Positions 3,316 to 62,826 of a DNA stretch of 64,000 bases are shown piece after piece; position 1 is the first letter of the stretch, and each line of letters opens with the position of its first letter. This DNA comes from Candidatus Hydrogenedentota bacterium (lineage in GTDB: Bacteria; Hydrogenedentota; Hydrogenedentia; Hydrogenedentales; CAILVY01), in the NCBI GenBank assembly GCA_029565395.1, contig JAKQOG010000290.1:24035-88034 (forward strand), in the 5' to 3' direction. The translations under genes and the position numbers were made by a program. The notes below the pieces were generated by a model that had not been told where the DNA came from, ran no database searches, and was given only the letters and a program-made list of their open reading frames with translations.

Positions 3316-4920
3316 TTAGTGATAGCGAATATACATATATCCGACGGCCGCCGTCACGAGCGCCCACCAAAAGGCCGGATTTTTCAGCCCGCGCATGCGC
3401 GCGCGAAGTTCCGGCGGCATTCGCAGGCTCTCCCGGGTCCAAATTAGATGACAAATCTCCGCTTCAGGTTTGGGGGTGGTTACAAGGCTCACGGCCATCC
3501 CTGTGAGCATACAGGCCCAGAATACAATCCCCGTGCGGTTGAAAAAAGGGTGCAGGTACTGTCCGAGGGCATCAGGCAGCCGTGGGGTGAGCAATTCAAG
3601 AGCGACCGTCAAGGGAATGGTCAGAATCCCTGCGGCCAGCGCACCCGCATGCGTGGTGCGTTTCCAGAGCACTCCGAGCAGGAACATAGTGGCAATGCCG
3701 GGCGTGACATAGCCGTAGGCGTTAAAGAGGTATATGAATATGGGACGGTCCGAGGATTTGATCAAAACAGACGCCCACAGGATACCCATGACTACAATCG
3801 CCACGCCCATGATGCGGCCAAACAATACCGCCTGCCGGTCTTCTGCTTTTGGATTAATGAAGGGGAGGTAAAAGTCCACCGTGAGAATAGTGGTGCAGGA
3901 ATTGACCGCCCCGGAAATGTGCGACATAATCGCCGCGATAAGCCCCGCCATGACCAGCCCCACCAATCCCTGGGGCAATAAATGTCCGACCAGAGTGGGA
4001 AAGGCCATATCCGGCTTTTCGAGGTTGGGAAACAATATGGGGGCCAGCATGCCGGGGATTACAACGATAAGCGGCAGGAAGAATTTCAGATAATCGGCGA
4101 ATACCACGCCCATTCGCGCATGCCATTCATCCTTCGCGGCCAGCGTCCGTTGAACAATGAACTGATTCGCAGCGCAATAAAATACACTGAGGCAAAGAAT
4201 ACCTCCCAGAAAAGATGTCCACGGGAAATCAGGATCTGTAGCGGGAAGCAATAGTTCCCACGAACCCGAAGTAGCCATGACTCCCTGCCAGCCACCCACG
4301 GCATGAATGGTAGCGAAGGATAGAATAAGCCCCCCGGTCAGCAATACTACTAACTGAAACATTTCGGTCCAGACCACGGCGCGCAATCCGCCGGCGATGG
4401 TGTATATTCCGGTGAATAAGGCAAGCCCAATAATGCTGGCGTTCAAGTTCCAGCCAAACAACGTTTCGAGAGCGATGGCGCCCATATACAACACCGCGCT
4501 GATTTCCACGAAGATATATACAATTAGAATCAACGCGGCAAAAACCGTGCGCGCTGCGCGGCCAAAGCGCTGATCGAGGAATTCAGGCATGGTGTAGAAA
4601 TTGTTGCGCAAATAGAAGGGCAGAAAAATCCATAATAACGCATTAAACCCGATCAGGATGGTGGGCCACTCAATGGTCATGGCGGCAAACCCGCGGGCAT
4701 ACGCGGTGCCGATTACGCCGATGAAATGATGGCTGCTGACATTCGCCGCCACGATGCTTCCGCCGATCATCCACCAGGGCAGGCGATCTCCCGCAAGGAA
4801 GTAGTTTCTCTTGCTGCTTCCCGCGCGCCGCGAGGCGATGATGCCCAGCAGTACTATGCCCGCAAGATAGACTGTAAAGACAATCCCGTCCAGCCATCCA
4901 AGATTTACAACGGCATCCAT
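3316..4920 (-). CDS. Sodium:solute symporter family (SSF/SSS) transporter; longest ORF extends to 4971, and the Met at 4920 lies just before TM1
   Basis: About 13 predicted TM helices and SSF-like N-terminus (NYFLAGDRLPWWMIGGSIVAANVSSHHFIGVIGTAY); Pro/Gly-rich membrane core. Confidence 0.8.
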   Translation of the reverse strand: MDAVVNLGWLDGIVFTVYLAGIVLLGIIASRRAGSSKRNYFLAGDRLPWWMIGGSIVAANVSSHHFIGVIGTAYARGFAAMTIEWPTILIGFNALLWIFLPFYLRNNFYTMPEFLDQRFGRAARTVFAALILIVYIFVEISAVLYMGAIALETLFGWNLNASIIGLALFTGIYTIAGGLRAVVWTEMFQLVVLLTGGLILSFATIHAVGGWQGVMATSGSWELLLPATDPDFPWTSFLGGILCLSVFYCAANQFIVQRTLAAKDEWHARMGVVFADYLKFFLPLIVVIPGMLAPILFPNLEKPDMAFPTLVGHLLPQGLVGLVMAGLIAAIMSHISGAVNSCTTILTVDFYLPFINPKAEDRQAVLFGRIMGVAIVVMGILWASVLIKSSDRPIFIYLFNAYGYVTPGIATMFLLGVLWKRTTHAGALAAGILTIPLTVALELLTPRLPDALGQYLHPFFNRTGIVFWACMLTGMAVSLVTTPKPEAEICHLIWTRESLRMPPELRARMRGLKNPAFWWALVTAAVGYMYIRYH

Positions 4921-4964
4921 GTTTTCCTCCGCACCATGTTGGGCAACCTGCTGGAACTCCCCAA

Positions 4965-6128
4965 TTACCAAAGAGGCGGCTTATATGCAGCGGTTAACGT
5001 ATGCCCGCTGAGCGGGGGGTGCAACGCATTTACGTCAATGCCCATGCGGGTTAAAATGGTCGGGGTGATGTCTTCACGCATTCCCCGGCGTTTGACTTTC
5101 GCGTCGTTGGTGGCGAGAAACACATACGGGGCATCGGCATGGGTCTTTATACCTTCGTCAAATCCATGATCCGCCGTGACATACACCAGCGTCTTGTCAT
5201 ACAAGCCAAGGTCTTTAAGCTTCTGTAAAATGGCCCCCGTCAAGGTATCGGCAGCAATAAGCGCGTGAGTATATTCAGGTGAATTTTCCCCGAACATGTG
5301 GCCCGCATCGTCAATCTCCCCAAAATGCACAAAGAAAAAGAACGGCTGATCTTTGTATTTGTCTATCAGTTCAAGCGTTTTTTCCCCCACCACCGCATCT
5401 TTATGAAGCCCATTTATGAACACATCAATGCCGTCTTTCATATGGAAATACGGCTTTCCTGGAATAAAACGGTATTTTTTCCCATTCTCTTCGATTATTT
5501 TCCCTTCCGCGGGTTTTCGCTTCTGGGGCCGCTGGGGAGTCTGTTCCGCTGGAGGAGTCGGTTCAGGCGGGGCAGGTTCCATGGACGAAGACACGGGCAG
5601 TTCACTCTCTGAAGAGGCGGCGGATTGTCCCGGAACTGGACGGGCCTTTGTGGGCTTTTTCGTGGGGGCGGGTTTAGGAGGTTCTGCGGCAGGCGCTTCA
5701 TCGAGAGGGATCTTCTGCGGGCCAATGGCTTCCATGTGTTCCCGTTTGCAAATCACGGCCACGGTAATGATATTGTCTTTCCCGAAATAGTTTTCCAGGC
5801 GTTCCGGCAGGGTATACCCCTTGGGAATGGACCAACTGCGCGCATTGCTGAACACGCCGGTGAATTCCGGTTCGTATCCAGTCAGAATCTGCGTCCATCC
5901 GGCTTTAGTGTCGGTCGTGCGAAGGATATCTATAGCCACCAATGCGCCTTCCTCACCGAGTGCTGTAAGATGAGGCAGTTCGCCTCGATCCATACATTCC
6001 TTTATATGATTGCGCTGTGCGGCATCCCATCCAATCAGGACGACATTGTACGGGGGGCCTCCGGCCATTGCCGTGGAGACCGCCAGTAAAATAGAGCCCA
6101 ATACCAGCAACAATATATACTTGTACAT
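4965..6128 (-). CDS. Secreted alkaline-phosphatase-superfamily enzyme, type I phosphodiesterase/nucleotide pyrophosphatase (NPP)-like, with a ~70-aa Pro/Glu/Ser-rich low-complexity insertion
   Basis: Signal peptide (MYKYILLLVLGSILLAVSTAMA). VLIGWDAAQRNH resembles the NPP LLISxDGFR block; VHFGEIDDAGHMFG resembles the NPP metal-binding PDxxGH block; VYVTADHGF. Insertion DEAPAAEPPKPAPTKKPTKARPVPG...PAPPEPTPPAEQTPQRPQKRKPAEG in mid-protein. Confidence 0.65.
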   Translation of the reverse strand: MYKYILLLVLGSILLAVSTAMAGGPPYNVVLIGWDAAQRNHIKECMDRGELPHLTALGEEGALVAIDILRTTDTKAGWTQILTGYEPEFTGVFSNARSWSIPKGYTLPERLENYFGKDNIITVAVICKREHMEAIGPQKIPLDEAPAAEPPKPAPTKKPTKARPVPGQSAASSESELPVSSSMEPAPPEPTPPAEQTPQRPQKRKPAEGKIIEENGKKYRFIPGKPYFHMKDGIDVFINGLHKDAVVGEKTLELIDKYKDQPFFFFVHFGEIDDAGHMFGENSPEYTHALIAADTLTGAILQKLKDLGLYDKTLVYVTADHGFDEGIKTHADAPYVFLATNDAKVKRRGMREDITPTILTRMGIDVNALHPPLSGHTLTAAYKPPLW

Positions 6129-33765: not shown

Positions 33766-33973
33766 TATGAGCGAACTTATCTTTCTGGTTGAAGAAGCGC
33801 CTGAAGGCGGGTATACCGCTAGAGCTATGGGAGAAGCCATCTTCACGGAAGCTGATACCTTGGATGAATTGCATGCACAAATTCGTGATGCGGTGACCTG
33901 CCATTTCGAAGACCACGCCCGCCCTAAGATTGTCCGGCTCCATTTTGTTCGCGAAGAGGTTATTGCGGTGTGA
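33766..33973 (+). CDS. hicB: HicB-family antitoxin (small, RNase-H-like fold type)
   Basis: 69-aa product MSELIFLVEEAPEGGYTARAMGEAIFTEADTLDELHAQIRDAVTCHF, typical of short HicB/UPF0150 antitoxins. RBS GAGGAAAAG; ATGA overlap with the downstream hicA; local GC (~49%) below the surroundings. Confidence 0.7.
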
Positions 33974-34212
33974 GACTCCCGCGTGATATCTCCGGCATGG
34001 AACTCACTCATCGACTGAGCCGGCTTGGTTATCGGATAACCCGCACAACAGGCAGTCATCAACGCCTTACAACTATGCTTCAGGGGGAACATCATGTTAC
34101 TGTCCCGCTGCATTCTCCCTTGAGAATGGGCACTCTCGCCGCTATTCTAAACGAAGTATCACAACACTTCGATATGTCTCGTCAAGACCTTCAAGAACAA
34201 CTCTTCGATTGA
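33970..34212 (+). CDS. hicA: HicA-family mRNA-interferase toxin
   Basis: 80-aa product with the HicA/YcfA signature: GYRITRTTGSHQRL then HHVTVPLHSPLRMGTLAAIL (GSH and TVP.H blocks). Confidence 0.7.
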   Translation: MRLPRDISGMELTHRLSRLGYRITRTTGSHQRLTTMLQGEHHVTVPLHSPLRMGTLAAILNEVSQHFDMSRQDLQEQLFD

Positions 34213-34264
34213 TCAGTTCTTTATTTTGTAGTGATCTCCCCACCCTGAATCGGTCATACTATCC

Positions 34265-37850: not shown

Positions 37851-37957
37851 GGGAGGGCGAGGCTCCCGCCGAGCCGTCAAACAAAACATCCAATTATCGT
37901 AGTGTAAGAAGAATATTTTGCTTTTGTTTCACGGCTCGGCAGGAGCCTCGCCCTCCC
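37851..37957. repeat. MITE-like palindromic element, copy 1 (107 bp)
   Basis: Arms GGGAGGGCGAGGCTCCCGCCGAGCCGTCAAACAAAA / TTTTGTTTCACGGCTCGGCAGGAGCCTCGCCCTCCC are near-perfect reverse complements around an AT-rich core. Intergenic, between terC and the oxidoreductase gene. Confidence 0.85.
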
Positions 37958-37960
37958 GGA

Positions 37961-39085
37961 TTATTTAAATTTCACTGCCTTGGACACGGATTGTTCGCAC
38001 ACTTCCCCGGCGGTGACTTCACGGCCCAGCGCATTCGACAAATAAATTCCCTCGGAAATGAGCATGGTATTCAGCGCGATCTCCGCCGTGGGCAACAATT
38101 CGACCCGCCCCTGCAATGCCGCCGCCCAATGATGCTGCGGGCTGTCATACACATCGCCAACGGTATGTACGTTCTGCAAGCGGTACTCGAATGTCTCCAG
38201 ATCCGCCGTGCAATCGAATTCCAGGTCGTCAATGTTGTGATAATAGCCAAACGGATTCAGCCGCACTCCTCCCTGGCTGCCCGCCACTGAAGATCCCTCA
38301 AACGCGTTCAGATGAATGGCCCACGATTCAATGATATCCAGCGTGATGCCGCCCTCGAACCGGACAAACCCCACCCCCAGCTCTTCCACGTCATACCCGC
38401 TCGACGCGCGGCGATTGGGATCCATGTCCGTTTCTTGATAGATCTTCCCCGTGATCGTGAGCACTTTCGGATTGCCCAGCAAATACAGCATGTTCGAGAT
38501 ATGATAGACCCCCATGTCAAACAAAGCGCCCCCCGCCGCCACCTCTTTCTGCACAAAACTGGCCGTGCCATAGCCGTCTACAAACGGCCGCTTGCGCCGC
38601 CGGAATCCGGTGGAGCGCGCATGATACAGCGTGCCCAGATGCCCGCCGTCAATGAGCGCCTTGGCCGCTTTGGTTTCGCGTGTAAACAGCGTAGCCAGTT
38701 GAATGGACAGCTTCCTTTTCAATTTACGCGCGGACGTCAGCATAGCTTCCGCATCGCAATACGCCCCAGCCATCGGCTTCTCGCAAAAAACATGCTTGCC
38801 CGCCTTCAGCGCCGCCACGGCAAAGGGCATGTGCAGATTATTGTGCAGGCAAATATCCACCGCTTCGATATCCGATCGCTTCAGAAGATCCGCAGCATTG
38901 AAATAAACATGCGGAATCTTGTACAGCTTGCCCACCCGCCGCGCTTCCGTCGTATTGGCATCCGCCAGCGCCACCATCTCCACCCCAGGAATGGCCGCAT
39001 ATCGATCCAGATGCTCCTTGCCGATCTGCCCAACACCGATAATGCCCAGGCGCGTCTTTTTCGTACTCATGGCCTTCCCTTTCAC
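37961..39085 (-). CDS. Gfo/Idh/MocA-family NAD(P)-dependent oxidoreductase
   Basis: N-terminal Rossmann block [18 protein letters not shown] block VFCEKPMA, and the family C-terminal alpha/beta domain. Confidence 0.8.
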
Positions 39086-39927
39086 AATGCGCCTAATTTT
39101 TCCAGATTCCGCCGGATCAATGCCGCCGTTTTTGCCGCCGCGCCGTATTCATCACCGTCTTCCGGGCAACTCTCCACCCCCCAGCAGCCTTTATACCCCG
39201 ACTCCACCAACAATCGAATCGCTTTCGCCAGGTTCACCGACGGGTCATTGCCCTGTGCATCGAAATTAAACGTTTTGAAATGGGTGGACCGCGCATACTT
39301 CGCGCACAGTTCCCAGCCCTTTTCCTTCAACTCGGTCGCCCAATTGTGGGAGTCAAACAACAGGCCAAGCCCCGGAACCGCCTCCAGGATCCGCACCACA
39401 TTTTCCGGGACAACCGATGGGCCCCAGTGATTTTCCATAAGAAGTTCAATGCCTTTGTCACGCGCGCGCGCAAGAATGTCCTCATACCCTTCCACGACGA
39501 TTTCCAGCACCGCGTCCGGCAGTTCCTGCGGCCCGCCCGCGTCAATGCGCACCTGCGCCGCACCCAATGTCTCCGCCACATCCAGCCAGCGATAGGCCAG
39601 GCGGCGGTTGGCCTCACGCGCCGCCGGATCCTCTTCGTAAATGTGCGCGCCATCCACCGCAATGCAGCCAAACGGCAGCCCCGCCGCCTCTGCCGCCTCC
39701 TTCACGCGCCGCACATACGCGTCATCCTGCGAGGAGAGCACTGCATGCCCAGGGTCGGCGCCCGCCTTCGCCACATGGTCGCCACCCTGCAATGGCGCCA
39801 ACTGCGCATTCCACGGATCAAGTTGCGTGGCGCCCAACTCCTTGCAGTCCGTGATGTACTTGAAAATATCCTGTTGTCCCGATTCCAGCAACCGGTGAAA
39901 ACTAAATCCTCCAAAACTCAGCTCCAT
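39082..39927 (-). CDS. Sugar phosphate isomerase/epimerase (xylose-isomerase-like TIM barrel) family protein
   Basis: AP-endonuclease-2/TIM-barrel family pattern; start taken at [10 protein letters not shown] (ATG 39927; the longest ORF extends to 39963). 4-nt overlap with the downstream oxidoreductase gene indicates an operon. Confidence 0.65.
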
Positions 39928-39963
39928 GTCGCGCTCCTTTGTAGATTTCCCACAGTATACCAA

Positions 39964-40925
39964 ATCTAAAGACGGTCATTGCGAACCCCAAATGATTGTC
40001 CCAGGGCTATCGCATTAAAAAAAGCCGATACATTGACATTTCTCAAGAACCGAGCCTCTCCTTCGCAAGGGATTTGCCAGCGTTTGTTTGAATCAACCCA
40101 ATGACAAAGGCGATTTTGCGGGGAATTTTAATGCGATAGCCCTGATGATTGTCCCGATTATTCATTGAATGGAAAAAGAGGCCGGGAGGGCAAAGTTTAT
40201 CACGCGTCTCGCGTGACTCACGCCGGGCCGTGCGGCAAAACATCCCAATTTGTCATTGCAAGGAGCGCCAGCAACGAAGCAATCTCGGAGCCATGTCAAC
40301 CCTGCCCATAGTAGCGCCACTTTCTTAGCAGCGAAGCGAAGTAATCTCGCCGGATTGTCAGCTGTGCATGGTTTCGGGATTGCTTCGCTTCGCTGCTAAG
40401 AAAGTGGCCATGATCGGGAGGGCGAGGTTTATCCACCGCAGGAGGGCTCCTGATGCTGTCTGAGAATTCTCTTTAAGAGTTATTTGATATGACTTGGCAA
40501 AGCTCAGAGTATCCCGCAGGGATTCAATAATTCCAGCCCAGGGTTGTGCGTCAGCGCTACCCTGGGTATGCTGCATCCCTAGAATAGCGCCTACCCTGAA
40601 AGGGTTGGCGCATGGTTAGGTTTAAAATTAAATTTCAACGCGTTGTATAACCCCTTCAGGGTTGGTTTATTAGGGATCTTGACCCAGGGTAGCGCCGGGC
40701 GCAACCCTGGGCTGGAATTATCAATCCCCGTTGGGGATTGCCGATTTTTTCTGTGATTAGCAGACATCGCACGGTCTCTTTTCGTTGTGATCGGCTTTTA
40801 TGAATTCTCAGACAGACTCGGGAGCCCTCCTGCGGCGGATAAACCTCGCCCTCCCGATGGACATGTTCACAACAAGCGCAAAATAACAACCTATGAAAAT
40901 CGATTAGGGATTCTGCAACGTTAAC
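39964..40925. repeat. ~950-bp noncoding region of nested and degenerate palindromic repeats (MITE nest or possible large structured RNA)
   Basis: No ORF with protein-like composition. Contains an inverted repeat 39988-40020 / 40127-40156; a perfect 26-bp stem 40315-40340 / 40383-40408; a 36-bp inverted repeat 40415-40450 / 40821-40855 starting with GGGAGGGCGAGG (same terminus as the MITE family); and an inner ~45-bp inverted repeat 40519-40567 / 40692-40740. Confidence 0.7.
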
Positions 40926-42776
40926 TTACTGCTCCGTGGGCGAAAGGAGGAAACGCAGATTGGGCAATGTTTTTCCGTTTTTATCCGTGATTCGCAGCAC
41001 AAAGCCCCAATTCACCTCGGTGTTGCACACCTTCACCAACAGCGGTGTCACCCCCTTGGGAATAGTCACCGACACCGTATCGCGATCCAGGTATGCCGAC
41101 CCTTCCACGGGATAGTCATATACCAGCGTATTGCCCAGCCACACTTTGCCCGCGTCGTTCGTTCCCACACGAAGTTGCGCCGGACACTCCTCGTCAGCGG
41201 CAACATAACACAGCGCATAGGCGCACACCTTTTCGGCGGGCGTGAACACGCGTTTAAAATCGACAAACATTGAATTGCCCGGCGCGGCATACTCCTGCCA
41301 CCGTCCTTTCCCGTTCACGGTGTCATATTCCGCCGAAAGATCTATGCCTTGTTCCGGCGGATACACCATAGTGTGACCGATGGATAATTCAGTGCAGGGA
41401 AAAGGCCCTGCCACCAGCCACCGGGTCTGCGCCCCAAAGAGTTTTTGAAGATTCACCGGTTTGCCGTGGAAATACTGCAAGGCCAAATTCCACCCCTCCG
41501 CCACCTTCGTTGGTTCCAGGGAATTCACCGGAATAAGACCAAAGTCAGGCATGGAGCCCGGCTCGACAAATCGCGGCACCGGCGTCACGCCCAGTTCCTT
41601 CGAATAATCAAGGAGGAACATCTGGCGCAACTCTTTCGCCACCGTTACATAAGGGGGTGACAGGATCACCTCGCGTTTCGCAATAACGTCAAGATAGGCC
41701 TGCAAGTCAGCCGGGCCTGTGTATAGCTCCAATTTGCGCCCCGCCAATTGCTCATAGCAATTATGGCTGTATATCCAGTTGTACCGTTTGCCGGCCATAA
41801 GCGAGCCCGCATAACCCTGCCGGAATTCCTCCAGCGGCATGCCGGGTTCCTGCACCGACTGATAATTAAACCCAAAGGGCCATATGCCCGGCGCAATGGA
41901 ACAATGACTTTTCCAATATGTTTTCGCGCGCGGGCTCAACAGGCGTTGAAACAGGCTGTTGCAGGCCCAGGCATGCCCCAGCATATACCGGATGTTTGGA
42001 TTGCGGTATGTGTGCTCGGTGCAATAATGAATCCCGCCGGGCGCTTGCCGGGCCGCGGCTTCTTCCACCCAGGCAAGGTGGATAACCATGCCCAGGCTGA
42101 ATTCCTGCTCCGGGAACGTAAGAAACACCATGTCGGGGAATTCATCATAGAGAATCCGGATTACACCCGTCATGCGCTCCCGCACCTTTCGAACCAGATC
42201 CTCCCGCGTATAGCCGGCATAGGTATACCCAGGCCAATCGAACTGGTATTGCTCCCCGCAATATTCAATATCCAGGGCAATGCCATTACATCCGGAATCG
42301 CGCGCAAAAATCGCAAACTGCCTGAAATTGTTGTTAATACGCCCCCACGCGGCGTCATTGAACCATTCAAAGAAATGATCAAAGGCAATTTTCAAAAATG
42401 TTTCCGACCCTATACTCCTGCAACTCTCATTCGCACGCTTCGCCTGCTGAAAGGTCTCATCGGATTCCCCAATGGTCCACGGCTTTTTATCTGTTGCCCA
42501 GATATCCGTGCACCACTCCCGCGCCACCTGATCCAGAAAAAATGCCTGCACGCCATGCTGCGCCCAAACCTGGGCGTCCGCAATAATCTGTTCCGGACTT
42601 GCCGAAAAAAGAATCGTCTTGGGGAGCGGCAATTCCGCCGTGGTTCCATACGAAAGCCCCGGCTCCGCCGTTTTTGACGGTTCCACGGCAACATCCGCAC
42701 AAGCACACCCCATCCCCAACAGCACTACGAATAGACACACCCGTGATTCCCACATACTGCCTCCTTTCAGGTACAC
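40926..42776 (-). CDS. Secreted protein of unknown function (616 aa; possible glycoside-hydrolase-like catalytic domain plus C-terminal beta-sandwich)
   Basis: Signal/lipoprotein-like N-terminus (LLGMGCACAD); coding-like composition throughout; no motif I can assign with confidence. Confidence 0.5.
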   Translation of the reverse strand: MYLKGGSMWESRVCLFVVLLGMGCACADVAVEPSKTAEPGLSYGTTAELPLPKTILFSASPEQIIADAQVWAQHGVQAFFLDQVAREWCTDIWATDKKPWTIGESDETFQQAKRANESCRSIGSETFLKIAFDHFFEWFNDAAWGRINNNFRQFAIFARDSGCNGIALDIEYCGEQYQFDWPGYTYAGYTREDLVRKVRERMTGVIRILYDEFPDMVFLTFPEQEFSLGMVIHLAWVEEAAARQAPGGIHYCTEHTYRNPNIRYMLGHAWACNSLFQRLLSPRAKTYWKSHCSIAPGIWPFGFNYQSVQEPGMPLEEFRQGYAGSLMAGKRYNWIYSHNCYEQLAGRKLELYTGPADLQAYLDVIAKREVILSPPYVTVAKELRQMFLLDYSKELGVTPVPRFVEPGSMPDFGLIPVNSLEPTKVAEGWNLALQYFHGKPVNLQKLFGAQTRWLVAGPFPCTELSIGHTMVYPPEQGIDLSAEYDTVNGKGRWQEYAAPGNSMFVDFKRVFTPAEKVCAYALCYVAADEECPAQLRVGTNDAGKVWLGNTLVYDYPVEGSAYLDRDTVSVTIPKGVTPLLVKVCNTEVNWGFVLRITDKNGKTLPNLRFLLSPTEQ

Positions 42777-43761: not shown

Positions 43762-43869
43762 GGGAGGGCGAGGCTCCTGCCGAGCCGTAAGACAAAATAT
43801 CCAAATAGCATATATTCCTGCGACAATCCTGATCTTGTTTTAACGGCTCGGCAGGAGCCTCGCCCTCCC
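43762..43869. repeat. MITE-like palindromic element, copy 2 (108 bp)
   Basis: Termini GGGAGGGCGAGGCTCCTGCCGAGCCGT / ACGGCTCGGCAGGAGCCTCGCCCTCCC; lies between convergent genes (metallophosphoesterase and RDD). Confidence 0.85.
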
Positions 43870-62719: not shown

Positions 62720-62826
62720 GGGAGGGCGAGGCTCTCGCCGAGCCGTAAAACTAAACAACCCAATGCAATATGATTAAACAATAATCCCGATCTTGTTTGA
62801 CGGCTCGACGGGAGCCTCGCCCTCCC
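62720..62826. repeat. MITE-like palindromic element, copy 3 (107 bp)
   Basis: Termini GGGAGGGCGAGGCTCTCGCCGAGCCGT / ACGGCTCGACGGGAGCCTCGCCCTCCC; lies between convergent queF and udk. Confidence 0.85.

Follow-up and report, generated by a model that had tools for sequence, protein, structure and literature searches.

Between positions 39928 and 40925 of the window, by which we mean the whole stretch of 64,000 nt analysed here, two minus-strand genes of an uncultured Candidatus Hydrogenedentes bacterium are separated by a spacer of 998 nt. Its left edge is set by the ATG (39927) of a xylose-isomerase-like TIM-barrel gene (39082-39927, minus strand) and its right edge by the stop codon (40926) of a gene for a 609-aa protein (40926-42755, minus strand). 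The spacer holds, from left to right, an apparent miniature inverted-repeat transposable element (MITE; 40002-40144), a recurrent repeat unit of 80 nt (40183-40262, plus strand), a 93-nt hairpin (40316-40408) and a composite nested palindrome of 446 nt (40413-40858), all but the 80-nt unit being unstranded. We consider it very probable that the spacer is a hotspot for a recent and lineage-specific pile-up of small non-coding palindromic mobile repeats, arranged at the level of DNA, which would explain an odd gap of 1 kb in a compact genome. The last 67 nt of the spacer (40859-40925, minus strand), directly after the stop codon of the 609-aa gene, lie outside the repeats and are kept in the closest relative. 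At the other end TGGTATACT (39954-39962, minus strand) reads as an extended -10 promoter box, putatively serving the downstream operon of the TIM-barrel gene and a GFO/IDH/MocA oxidoreductase, and judged from its sequence it appears to mark the ancestral edge of the spacer. A short motif, GTCATTGCGAA (39975-39985, plus strand), has a second copy, GTCATTGCAAG, at 40252-40262; motifs of this type recur beside repeat units elsewhere, with GTCATTGCGAG adjoining the same units at two further loci, L085 and L084.

A first-pass annotation of this DNA had described the region of about 950 bp as free of genes, which was borne out. The spacer contains no credible open reading frame (ORF), the longest one measuring 77 aa, and a search of 5.8 billion proteins with six-frame peptides of the region was empty at E <= 1. 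Neither a tRNA nor a tandem repeat was found in the spacer, and Rfam gave nothing at gathering score across the whole window; at E <= 10 the region returned only noise, such as a microRNA model matching the 93-nt hairpin. BLASTN in distant mode led to no match to the region in plasmid and phage collections, scans of viral contigs with three patterns yielded chance matches only, and nothing relevant was found in the literature on these repeat sequences themselves. The inverted repeats listed in that annotation are all present, with minor shifts of coordinates, and exceed chance by far: 4 of the 10 inverted repeats of at least 18 nt in the window fall within the spacer, and another three are the 107-nt hairpin repeats described below. 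The predicted folds are very stable, with -272 and -259 kcal/mol for the two strands of the 446-nt element (z = -19 and -21) and z = -10.3 for the 93-nt hairpin.

The orthologous loci of related genomes indicate when this material was gained. Relatives with a 609-aa protein of 79-80% identity retain the gene order Metallophos - 609-aa gene - AP_endonuc_2 - GFO_IDH_MocA, and their syntenic spacers measure 45 nt (L076/L077) or 175 nt of unrelated sequence (L075), compared with 998 nt in the window. The insert is missing from all three loci (L075, L076 and L077). Only a TGnTATACT box at equal distance from the ATG (TGGTATACT in L076/L077 and TGCTATACT in L075), the ribosome-binding site and the ATG itself can be aligned with the window. 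Since the block is missing from the syntenic relatives and nothing but the promoter-box edge aligns, it follows that this lineage gained about 950 nt between stop codon and -10 box. In the closest relative, L074, which encodes a 609-aa protein of 94% identity, the contig end matches window positions 40844-40925 with 93% identity over 82 nt; after the shared 67 nt, a plain hairpin-repeat arm (TGGGAGGGCGAGGCTCCCGCCGAGCCGTAAA) starts at the exact base where the 446-nt element starts in the window, and the L074 contig ends there. More distant homologs of the 609-aa protein were also considered for comparison and set aside as uninformative, as they are not syntenic. The closest syntenic orthologs (79-80%) that also carry the same repeat family are L014 and L053 (assemblies CAYYRW01 and CAYXPO01). 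The metagenome-assembled genomes (MAGs) of L014 and L053 are titled 'uncultured Nitrospirales', and Hydrogenedentes is the label of most named homologs of the 609-aa protein, so that one of these two sets of taxonomic labels is probably wrong.

The leftmost element (40002-40144) measures 143 bp and is bounded by perfect terminal inverted repeats of 19 bp (CAGGGCTATCGCATTAAAA; 40002-40020 / 40126-40144, complementary at 19 of 19 positions), which start with CAGGG. Directly outside them lies a target-site duplication, as read from the sequence, with ATGATTGTCC at 39992-40001 and an identical copy (10/10) at 40145-40154. The pair of repeats seen here in the first-pass annotation thus contains a true and perfect inverted repeat of 19 nt, into which the flanking 10-bp direct repeat had been merged. 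The interior is non-palindromic and non-coding, its ORFs being short and devoid of homologs, and the fold (z = -4.6) is driven by the termini alone. Members of the ISAs1 family have terminal inverted repeats of 14-22 bp beginning with CAGGG and a 10-bp direct repeat (PMC11946415), and for ISArsp11 of this family the repeat CAGGGCTGATGCAAAGTCG and a 10-bp direct repeat are described (PMC6305408). The element at 40002-40144 shows all of these features, namely a CAGGG repeat within 14-22 bp and a duplication of about 10 bp, and it is small and non-coding. By its sequence it is best classified as an ISAs1-type MITE, intact and apparently recent, and as far as the literature shows it would be the first of this type noted in Hydrogenedentes. 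The earlier description of the region as a MITE graveyard is only half right, the leftmost element being intact. A single match of the MITE to a viral contig is a chance match.

The remaining elements share a different vocabulary, that of a dispersed family of hairpin repeats with GGGAGGGCGAGG tips, here also called the GGGAGGG family. In the 64-kb window GGGAGGGCGAGG has 8 exact matches (0.39 expected), and 9 tips are present altogether, including those of three complete 107-nt hairpins (37851-37957, 43762-43869 and 62720-62826), each of which lies in a short intergenic gap. Their arms of 28-36 nt pair with 91-100% identity, and the mean column identity between copies is 80%. The basic 107-nt form consists of GGGAGGGCGAGGCTCCCGCCGAGCCGT, a loop and the mirror arm; in a second form, present in L080/L089 and L084, one arm carries an additional TTTATCCRCCGYAGGAGG, and decayed or half copies of this form were detected in L079/L081, L083 and L090. 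The arm variant was found in 13 further metagenome stretches whose GC content and tetranucleotide usage fit the window (r = 0.88-0.94), which suggests the same genome, or a very close one, as their source. Both 79-80% relatives (L014 and L053) carry the family, and no tips were found in about 55 kb of more distant Hydrogenedentes loci. Scanning of a genome collection with the 18-mer GGGAGGGCRARGTTTATC returned 61 single matches in unrelated phyla, close to the approximately 69 that we estimate to be expected by chance, and the only matches that look real were those in the two related MAGs (L053 and L014). Some sequences flanking the tips are recurrent as well, for example GGCGATTCGCAGAAGAAAGTAAAATGCGAGGTT, and stand in mirror orientation on both sides of some copies; either the units extend further than their tips would imply, or insertion took place into the centre of another palindrome.

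The 80-nt unit (40183-40262), previously listed as a degenerate half-copy of the MITE, is indeed present, but it proved to be a recurrent unit in its own right, with 90% identity to a copy in L085 (4337-4416; 90-91% over 77-80 nt). It is composed of a GGGAGGGCAAAG tip, which differs from the family tip by 2 mismatches, TTTATC, a 7-bp palindrome (TCACGCG TCT CGCGTGA), GCCGGGCCGTGCGGCAAAACATCCCAATTT and GTCATTGCAAG, and it is followed by GTCATTGC(A/G)AG in the window and L085 alike. The 93-nt hairpin (40316-40408) has arms of 34 nt (40316-40349 / 40375-40408) with 94% identity around a loop of 25 nt. The perfect 26-bp stem reported before is contained in it, with its coordinates corrected to 40316-40341 / 40383-40408. 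Its inner part (40335/40343-40385) has matches of 86-91% in L082/L088, and its outer right arm together with CATGATC (40393-40415) directly adjoins GGGAGGG tips in L084 and L085, the match including the tip being 35/35 in L084 and 40/41 in L085. The motif GTCATTGC(G/A)AG...CGAAGCAATCTC, which is found in the window (40250-40295, 40316-40408), L084 and L085 and can be translated into DCFVA...NDK-like peptides, may resemble a hairpin repeat known from spurious ORFs in many phyla; the protein search was empty at E <= 1.

Modules of this kind recur in other combinations, among them the 80-nt unit, the loop module of the 93-nt hairpin, the CTGCTAAGAAAGTGGCCATGATC flank and the arm. A second gene-free spacer of about 1 kb, L085 4146-5188 (contig Ga0116156_10000033), holds the same modules in another order between divergent genes for a beta-helix protein and a ceramidase-like protein. 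Such clusters therefore recur in this population.

The composite palindrome (40413-40858) has outer arms of 57 nt (40413-40469 / 40802-40858; 93%) around an interior of about 330 nt. The first-pass annotation had recognised this outer repeat with a length of 36 bp, which falls short of its true extent, and had noted that its ends match the termini of the MITE family; they are GGGAGGGCGAGG tips as in the three 107-nt hairpin repeats. Each arm corresponds to the arm variant of the hairpin repeats, that is, the tip plus TTTATCCRCCGCAGGAGGGCTCC, so that the TTTATCCRCCGYAGGAGG-extended arm is found on both sides and the long interior takes the place of the hairpin core. Inside, a small hairpin ATCCCGCAGGGAT(T) (40511-40524, plus strand), kept in the paralogs described below as ATCCCGAAGGGAT, precedes the left arm of an inner inverted repeat (40527-40567), which pairs with the right arm (40682-40721) over 41 nt at 90%. 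An inner repeat of about 45 bp had been proposed; the part beyond these 41 nt belongs to two separate local hairpins (40511-40524 and 40722-40740). The left inner arm is itself a local hairpin, CCCAGGG - 16 nt - CCCTGGG, a pattern with 2 matches against 0.07 expected, in place of which the paralogs carry CAGCCCAGGATAAGCGAAGCGCCATCCTGGGT. Between the inner arms lies a core of 114 nt (40568-40681), which is 61% identical to its own reverse complement and thus partly palindromic. The right inner arm is followed by a terminator-like hairpin CAATCCCCGTTGGGGATTG and then CCGATTTTTT (40722-40750, plus strand), for which the paralogs carry CATCCCCTGCGGGGATG and then AATCGTTTTT at the corresponding position. 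A partial mirror image of the T-run is present on the left side in L085, and hairpin and T-run may therefore simply belong to the palindrome.

Two paralogs of the composite were detected on different contigs of the same metagenome, both on the minus strand, one in L085 (about 4467-4989) and the other in L078 (about 5255-5821), with L087 representing the L078 locus a second time. All three copies share one order of parts, with an arm, CTGTCYGAGAATT, the ATCCCGNAGGGAT hairpin, the inner repeat, the core and the mirror half, and in each of them the arms of the inner repeat begin with CAGCCCAGG and end with CCTGGGT. Across the left 156 nt the paralogs match the window copy with 72% identity; on the right, a plain hairpin repeat stands in place of their outer arm. 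The sequence of the inner repeats differs between the two subfamilies with self-complementarity kept. Homology between the cores (114 and 180 nt) was tested for and rejected, the alignment score lying within the shuffled null, and the only likeness consists of short CYCTGAAAGRG / CYCTTNCAGRG hairpins. Outside the core, L085 and L078 are collinear and about 97% identical. Their cores of 180 nt are flipped relative to each other (about 4674-4854 in L085 and about 5507-5686 in L078), with 94% identity in reverse complement and 54% in direct comparison, and are bounded by perfect 38-nt inverted repeats. The composite was thus duplicated as a unit, and one inversion took place between the inner repeats. 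Each of the three copies is set among unrelated genes in differing orientations, and no transposase or recombinase is encoded next to any of them. A separate transposon within the arms, bounded by CTGTCYGAGAATT, was also considered and discarded, as no convincing target duplication was found: CTCCCG is present on both sides in L085 and L078 at offset positions, and the window's palindrome just runs on.

Two metagenome contigs of this locus end inside the region, L004 at window position 40651, about 15-30 nt from the centre of the composite, and L005 at 40066, within about 10 nt of the MITE centre. Both breaks likely reflect failure of the assembler on inverted repeats, and, since contigs end within palindromes, such elements probably fragment MAGs of this group.

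These observations can be combined in the following scenario. The ancestral spacer would have comprised a few tens of bases with the stop codon, the extended -10 box, the ribosome-binding site and the ATG, and would have gained about 950 nt between stop codon and -10 box in at least four events. In one of them the ISAs1-type MITE may have transposed in by a DDE cut-and-paste or copy mechanism, as its terminal repeats and target duplication suggest, duplicating 10 bp of target and presumably moved by an ISAs1-family transposase acting in trans. The other events would have brought the 80-nt 'tip' unit, the 93-nt hairpin and the 446-nt palindrome, which form a single GGGAGGGCGAGG-tipped superfamily dispersed in this genome and close relatives, with modules recombined in a different order at each locus, like the mosaic clusters of repetitive extragenic palindromic (REP) sequences in E. 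coli, the bacterial interspersed mosaic elements (BIMEs). Some enzyme, or recombination between copies, would have spread this family. The 446-nt element can be described as a pair of hairpin-repeat arms whose short loop was replaced by a nested-palindrome interior of about 330 nt, and it would spread as one unit because the paralogs elsewhere have the same nested architecture; its long internal inverted repeats would permit core-flipping recombination, and the observed flip may have arisen by recombination or template switching between the 38-nt repeats. The insertion of repeats at the DNA level, as proposed in the first-pass annotation, is thus supported by the absence of the block in relatives, the recurrence of modules in other combinations and one target-site duplication; the Russian-doll nesting suggested there does not extend to the 446-nt palindrome as three independent insertions at this site, given the architecture shared with the paralogs. 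For the neighbouring genes, the pile-up might provide insulation or termination between them or stabilise mRNA, and, placed immediately upstream of a conserved promoter box, the repeats may insulate the downstream sugar-metabolism operon or change its expression.

Several results weigh against a pile-up of mobile repeats. No second copy of the 143-bp MITE or of an interior like that of the window's composite was found in about 83 kb of the source contig or in about 100 kb of other loci, and the additional approximately 19 kb of source contig contains no further copies of any module. A consistent target-site duplication was not found for the GGGAGGGCGAGG family, whose flanks show only a tendency to T before and A after the tip, that is, an extension of the palindrome. 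Likewise, no transposase, RAYT or recombinase was found for the GGGAGGG family, and no member of the RAYT family is among the called genes with Pfam hits in about 60 kb; with neither an enzyme nor a consistent duplication, the mobility of this family is deduced from its distribution only. The arm variant is either confined to a narrow clade or the source genome lies outside the scanned genome collection, and as the window's own locus was not returned by that scan, the latter is apparently the case. The scans of collections were not exhaustive, the metagenome scan having missed the window's own contig, and all copy numbers are therefore lower bounds. Finally, the order of helices is kept in two diverged subfamilies of the composite, with 17 of 117 predicted pairs changed on both sides, and selection acting on a folded product could also account for this.

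The architecture of the composite invites a further reading, according to which the palindromes of 446-590 nt are a distinct mobile chassis, made of the arms and sub-terminal hairpins, with an exchangeable and flippable core between repeats of 38-41 nt. We regard this as unlikely. If true, such elements would amount to transposable invertons, or to mobile genes that specify a folded RNA or a single-stranded DNA, in a candidate phylum without genetics. A DNA switch of the inverton type, in which a recombinase flips the core between the inner repeats of 38-41 nt and thereby alters local transcription, appears quite unlikely to us. The opposite orientation of the 180-nt cores of L085 and L078 between perfect 38-nt repeats, with the remainder about 97% collinear, is what such a switch would produce, and the size of the segment and the length of the repeats are within the range of known invertons. 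The two orientations were observed at different loci, however, and never at one locus in the assemblies: two metagenomes (L078 and L087) agree on the orientation at the L078 locus, and the window locus is identical in four assemblies. Moreover, neither core contains a sigma-70-like promoter, no invertase or recombinase gene lies beside any copy, and the core in the window is itself partly palindromic (61% identical to its reverse complement). A single recombination or template switch between the 38-nt repeats after duplication explains the flip.

It is very doubtful, in our opinion, that the 446-nt element, or the region in its entirety, is the gene of a large structured non-coding RNA with helices kept by selection, although the first-pass annotation had pointed to the likeness of such nested helices to large ornate RNAs. 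The very stable predicted folds, the helix order mentioned above and the terminator-like hairpin with its T-run at the same relative place would agree with an RNA gene. The fold, however, is equal on both strands, as for any DNA palindrome, the stems are perfect or nearly so, and their few mismatches (4 G-T, 1 A-C and 2 other) show no strand bias as would be left by wobble pairing. The covariation term is unfavourable (+3.29), with only two independent lineages to draw on, and the cores of the two subfamilies are unrelated. No Rfam family was found even at E <= 10, and none of the covariance models for large structured RNAs (OLE, GOLLD, ROOL, HEARO, raiA and all others) matched. Position and linkage are not conserved either, as the element is absent from the orthologous locus of L075, L076 and L077, its copies adjoin unrelated genes in all orientations, and it ends in tips that belong to a dispersed family of repeats. 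That the region has decayed from a single larger element, such as an insertion sequence, a prophage end or a pseudogene, is hardly credible, for although an arm pair with a long interior resembles an internally deleted insertion sequence and the contigs L004 and L005 end inside the region (40651 and 40066), six-frame peptides are without a homolog at E <= 1, phage and plasmid collections hold nothing similar, the modules recur independently at other loci and the interior is palindromic throughout, unlike a decayed gene. Taken together, everything testable points to DNA repeats instead of an RNA gene for the composite, and its kept architecture and flipped core alone leave room for more. For annotators and those searching for RNA motifs, it follows that 'ornate' folds in Hydrogenedentes MAGs call for caution, as they can be DNA repeats.

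The protein encoded by the TIM-barrel gene (39082-39927) is found with identical sequence on the 179-kb contig DAONNH010000001.1 of the MAG GCA_035393045.1 and on contigs of the JGI metagenome samples 3300010355, 3300009780 and 3300025871, and the window locus 39000-42000 is 100% identical across these four assemblies. The source labels of the homologs of the 609-aa protein read Candidatus Hydrogenedentes, and the host is an uncultured member of this group from anaerobic digesters. The 609-aa protein itself (40926-42755) has no Pfam domain and more than 200 full-length homologs with 52-94% identity, mostly in MAGs labelled Hydrogenedentes; it represents a conserved family whose N-terminus apparently carries a signal or lipoprotein-like sequence. 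Elsewhere in the window, a further gap (L001 15716-16161, about window 33770-34215) holds a gene for a HicA toxin and, upstream of it, a small partner, which together resemble a type II toxin-antitoxin pair.

Among known systems, the MITE at 40002-40144 agrees with ISAs1-derived MITEs in its perfect 19-bp CAGGG repeats, 10-bp duplication, lack of coding capacity and intergenic site, and the ISArsp11 repeat resembles its own (CAGGGCTGATGCA... compared with CAGGGCTATCGCA...). It differs in that neither a parent insertion sequence nor a second copy was found in the sampled sequence. The 107-nt hairpins resemble REP sequences and their RAYT-mobilised doublets, REPINs (PMC3116915, PMC3337134), in being extragenic, of about REPIN size, multi-copy and restricted to a narrow lineage, and in having two inverted arms with a short spacer. 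Identity with REPINs was nevertheless rejected: single arms fold as shuffled sequence (z = -0.02 and -0.25), and because a single arm is not palindromic, as a REP is, the family misses the REPIN definition (PMC3116915, PMC3337134). A GTAG-type head is absent as well.

The BIMEs of E. coli and the pneumococcal BOX elements are intergenic clusters built from a few short modules in varying order and orientation. The clusters described here likewise combine the same short modules in different orders at different intergenic sites, with a vocabulary of tip arms, the AGAAAGT flank, the AAGCAATCTCG...CGAGATTGCTT hairpin and GTCATTGCGAG. Sequences and phylum are unrelated, however, and the clusters reach 1 kb, including a nested palindrome of 446-590 nt. 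Correia, ERIC and Rickettsia palindromic elements are imperfect, dispersed and non-coding palindromes of 100-170 bp that can affect the transcription of neighbouring genes. Long imperfect hairpins, dispersal and lack of coding capacity are shared with them, whereas the composite is 3-5 times longer, has at least three levels of nesting and carries a core that varies by subfamily. With invertons it shares a segment of 114-180 nt between inverted repeats of 38-41 nt that is found in both orientations, but these occur in paralogs at different loci, and neither a promoter nor an invertase was detected. The spacer therewith adds an ISAs1-type MITE, as judged by its ends, and a modular GGGAGGGCGAGG-tipped family to the sparse catalogue of mobile DNA in this uncultured phylum. 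All of its elements are known kinds of MITE- and REP-like repeats; the only unusual feature, and the one most deserving attention, is the composite palindrome with a core flipped between paralogs.

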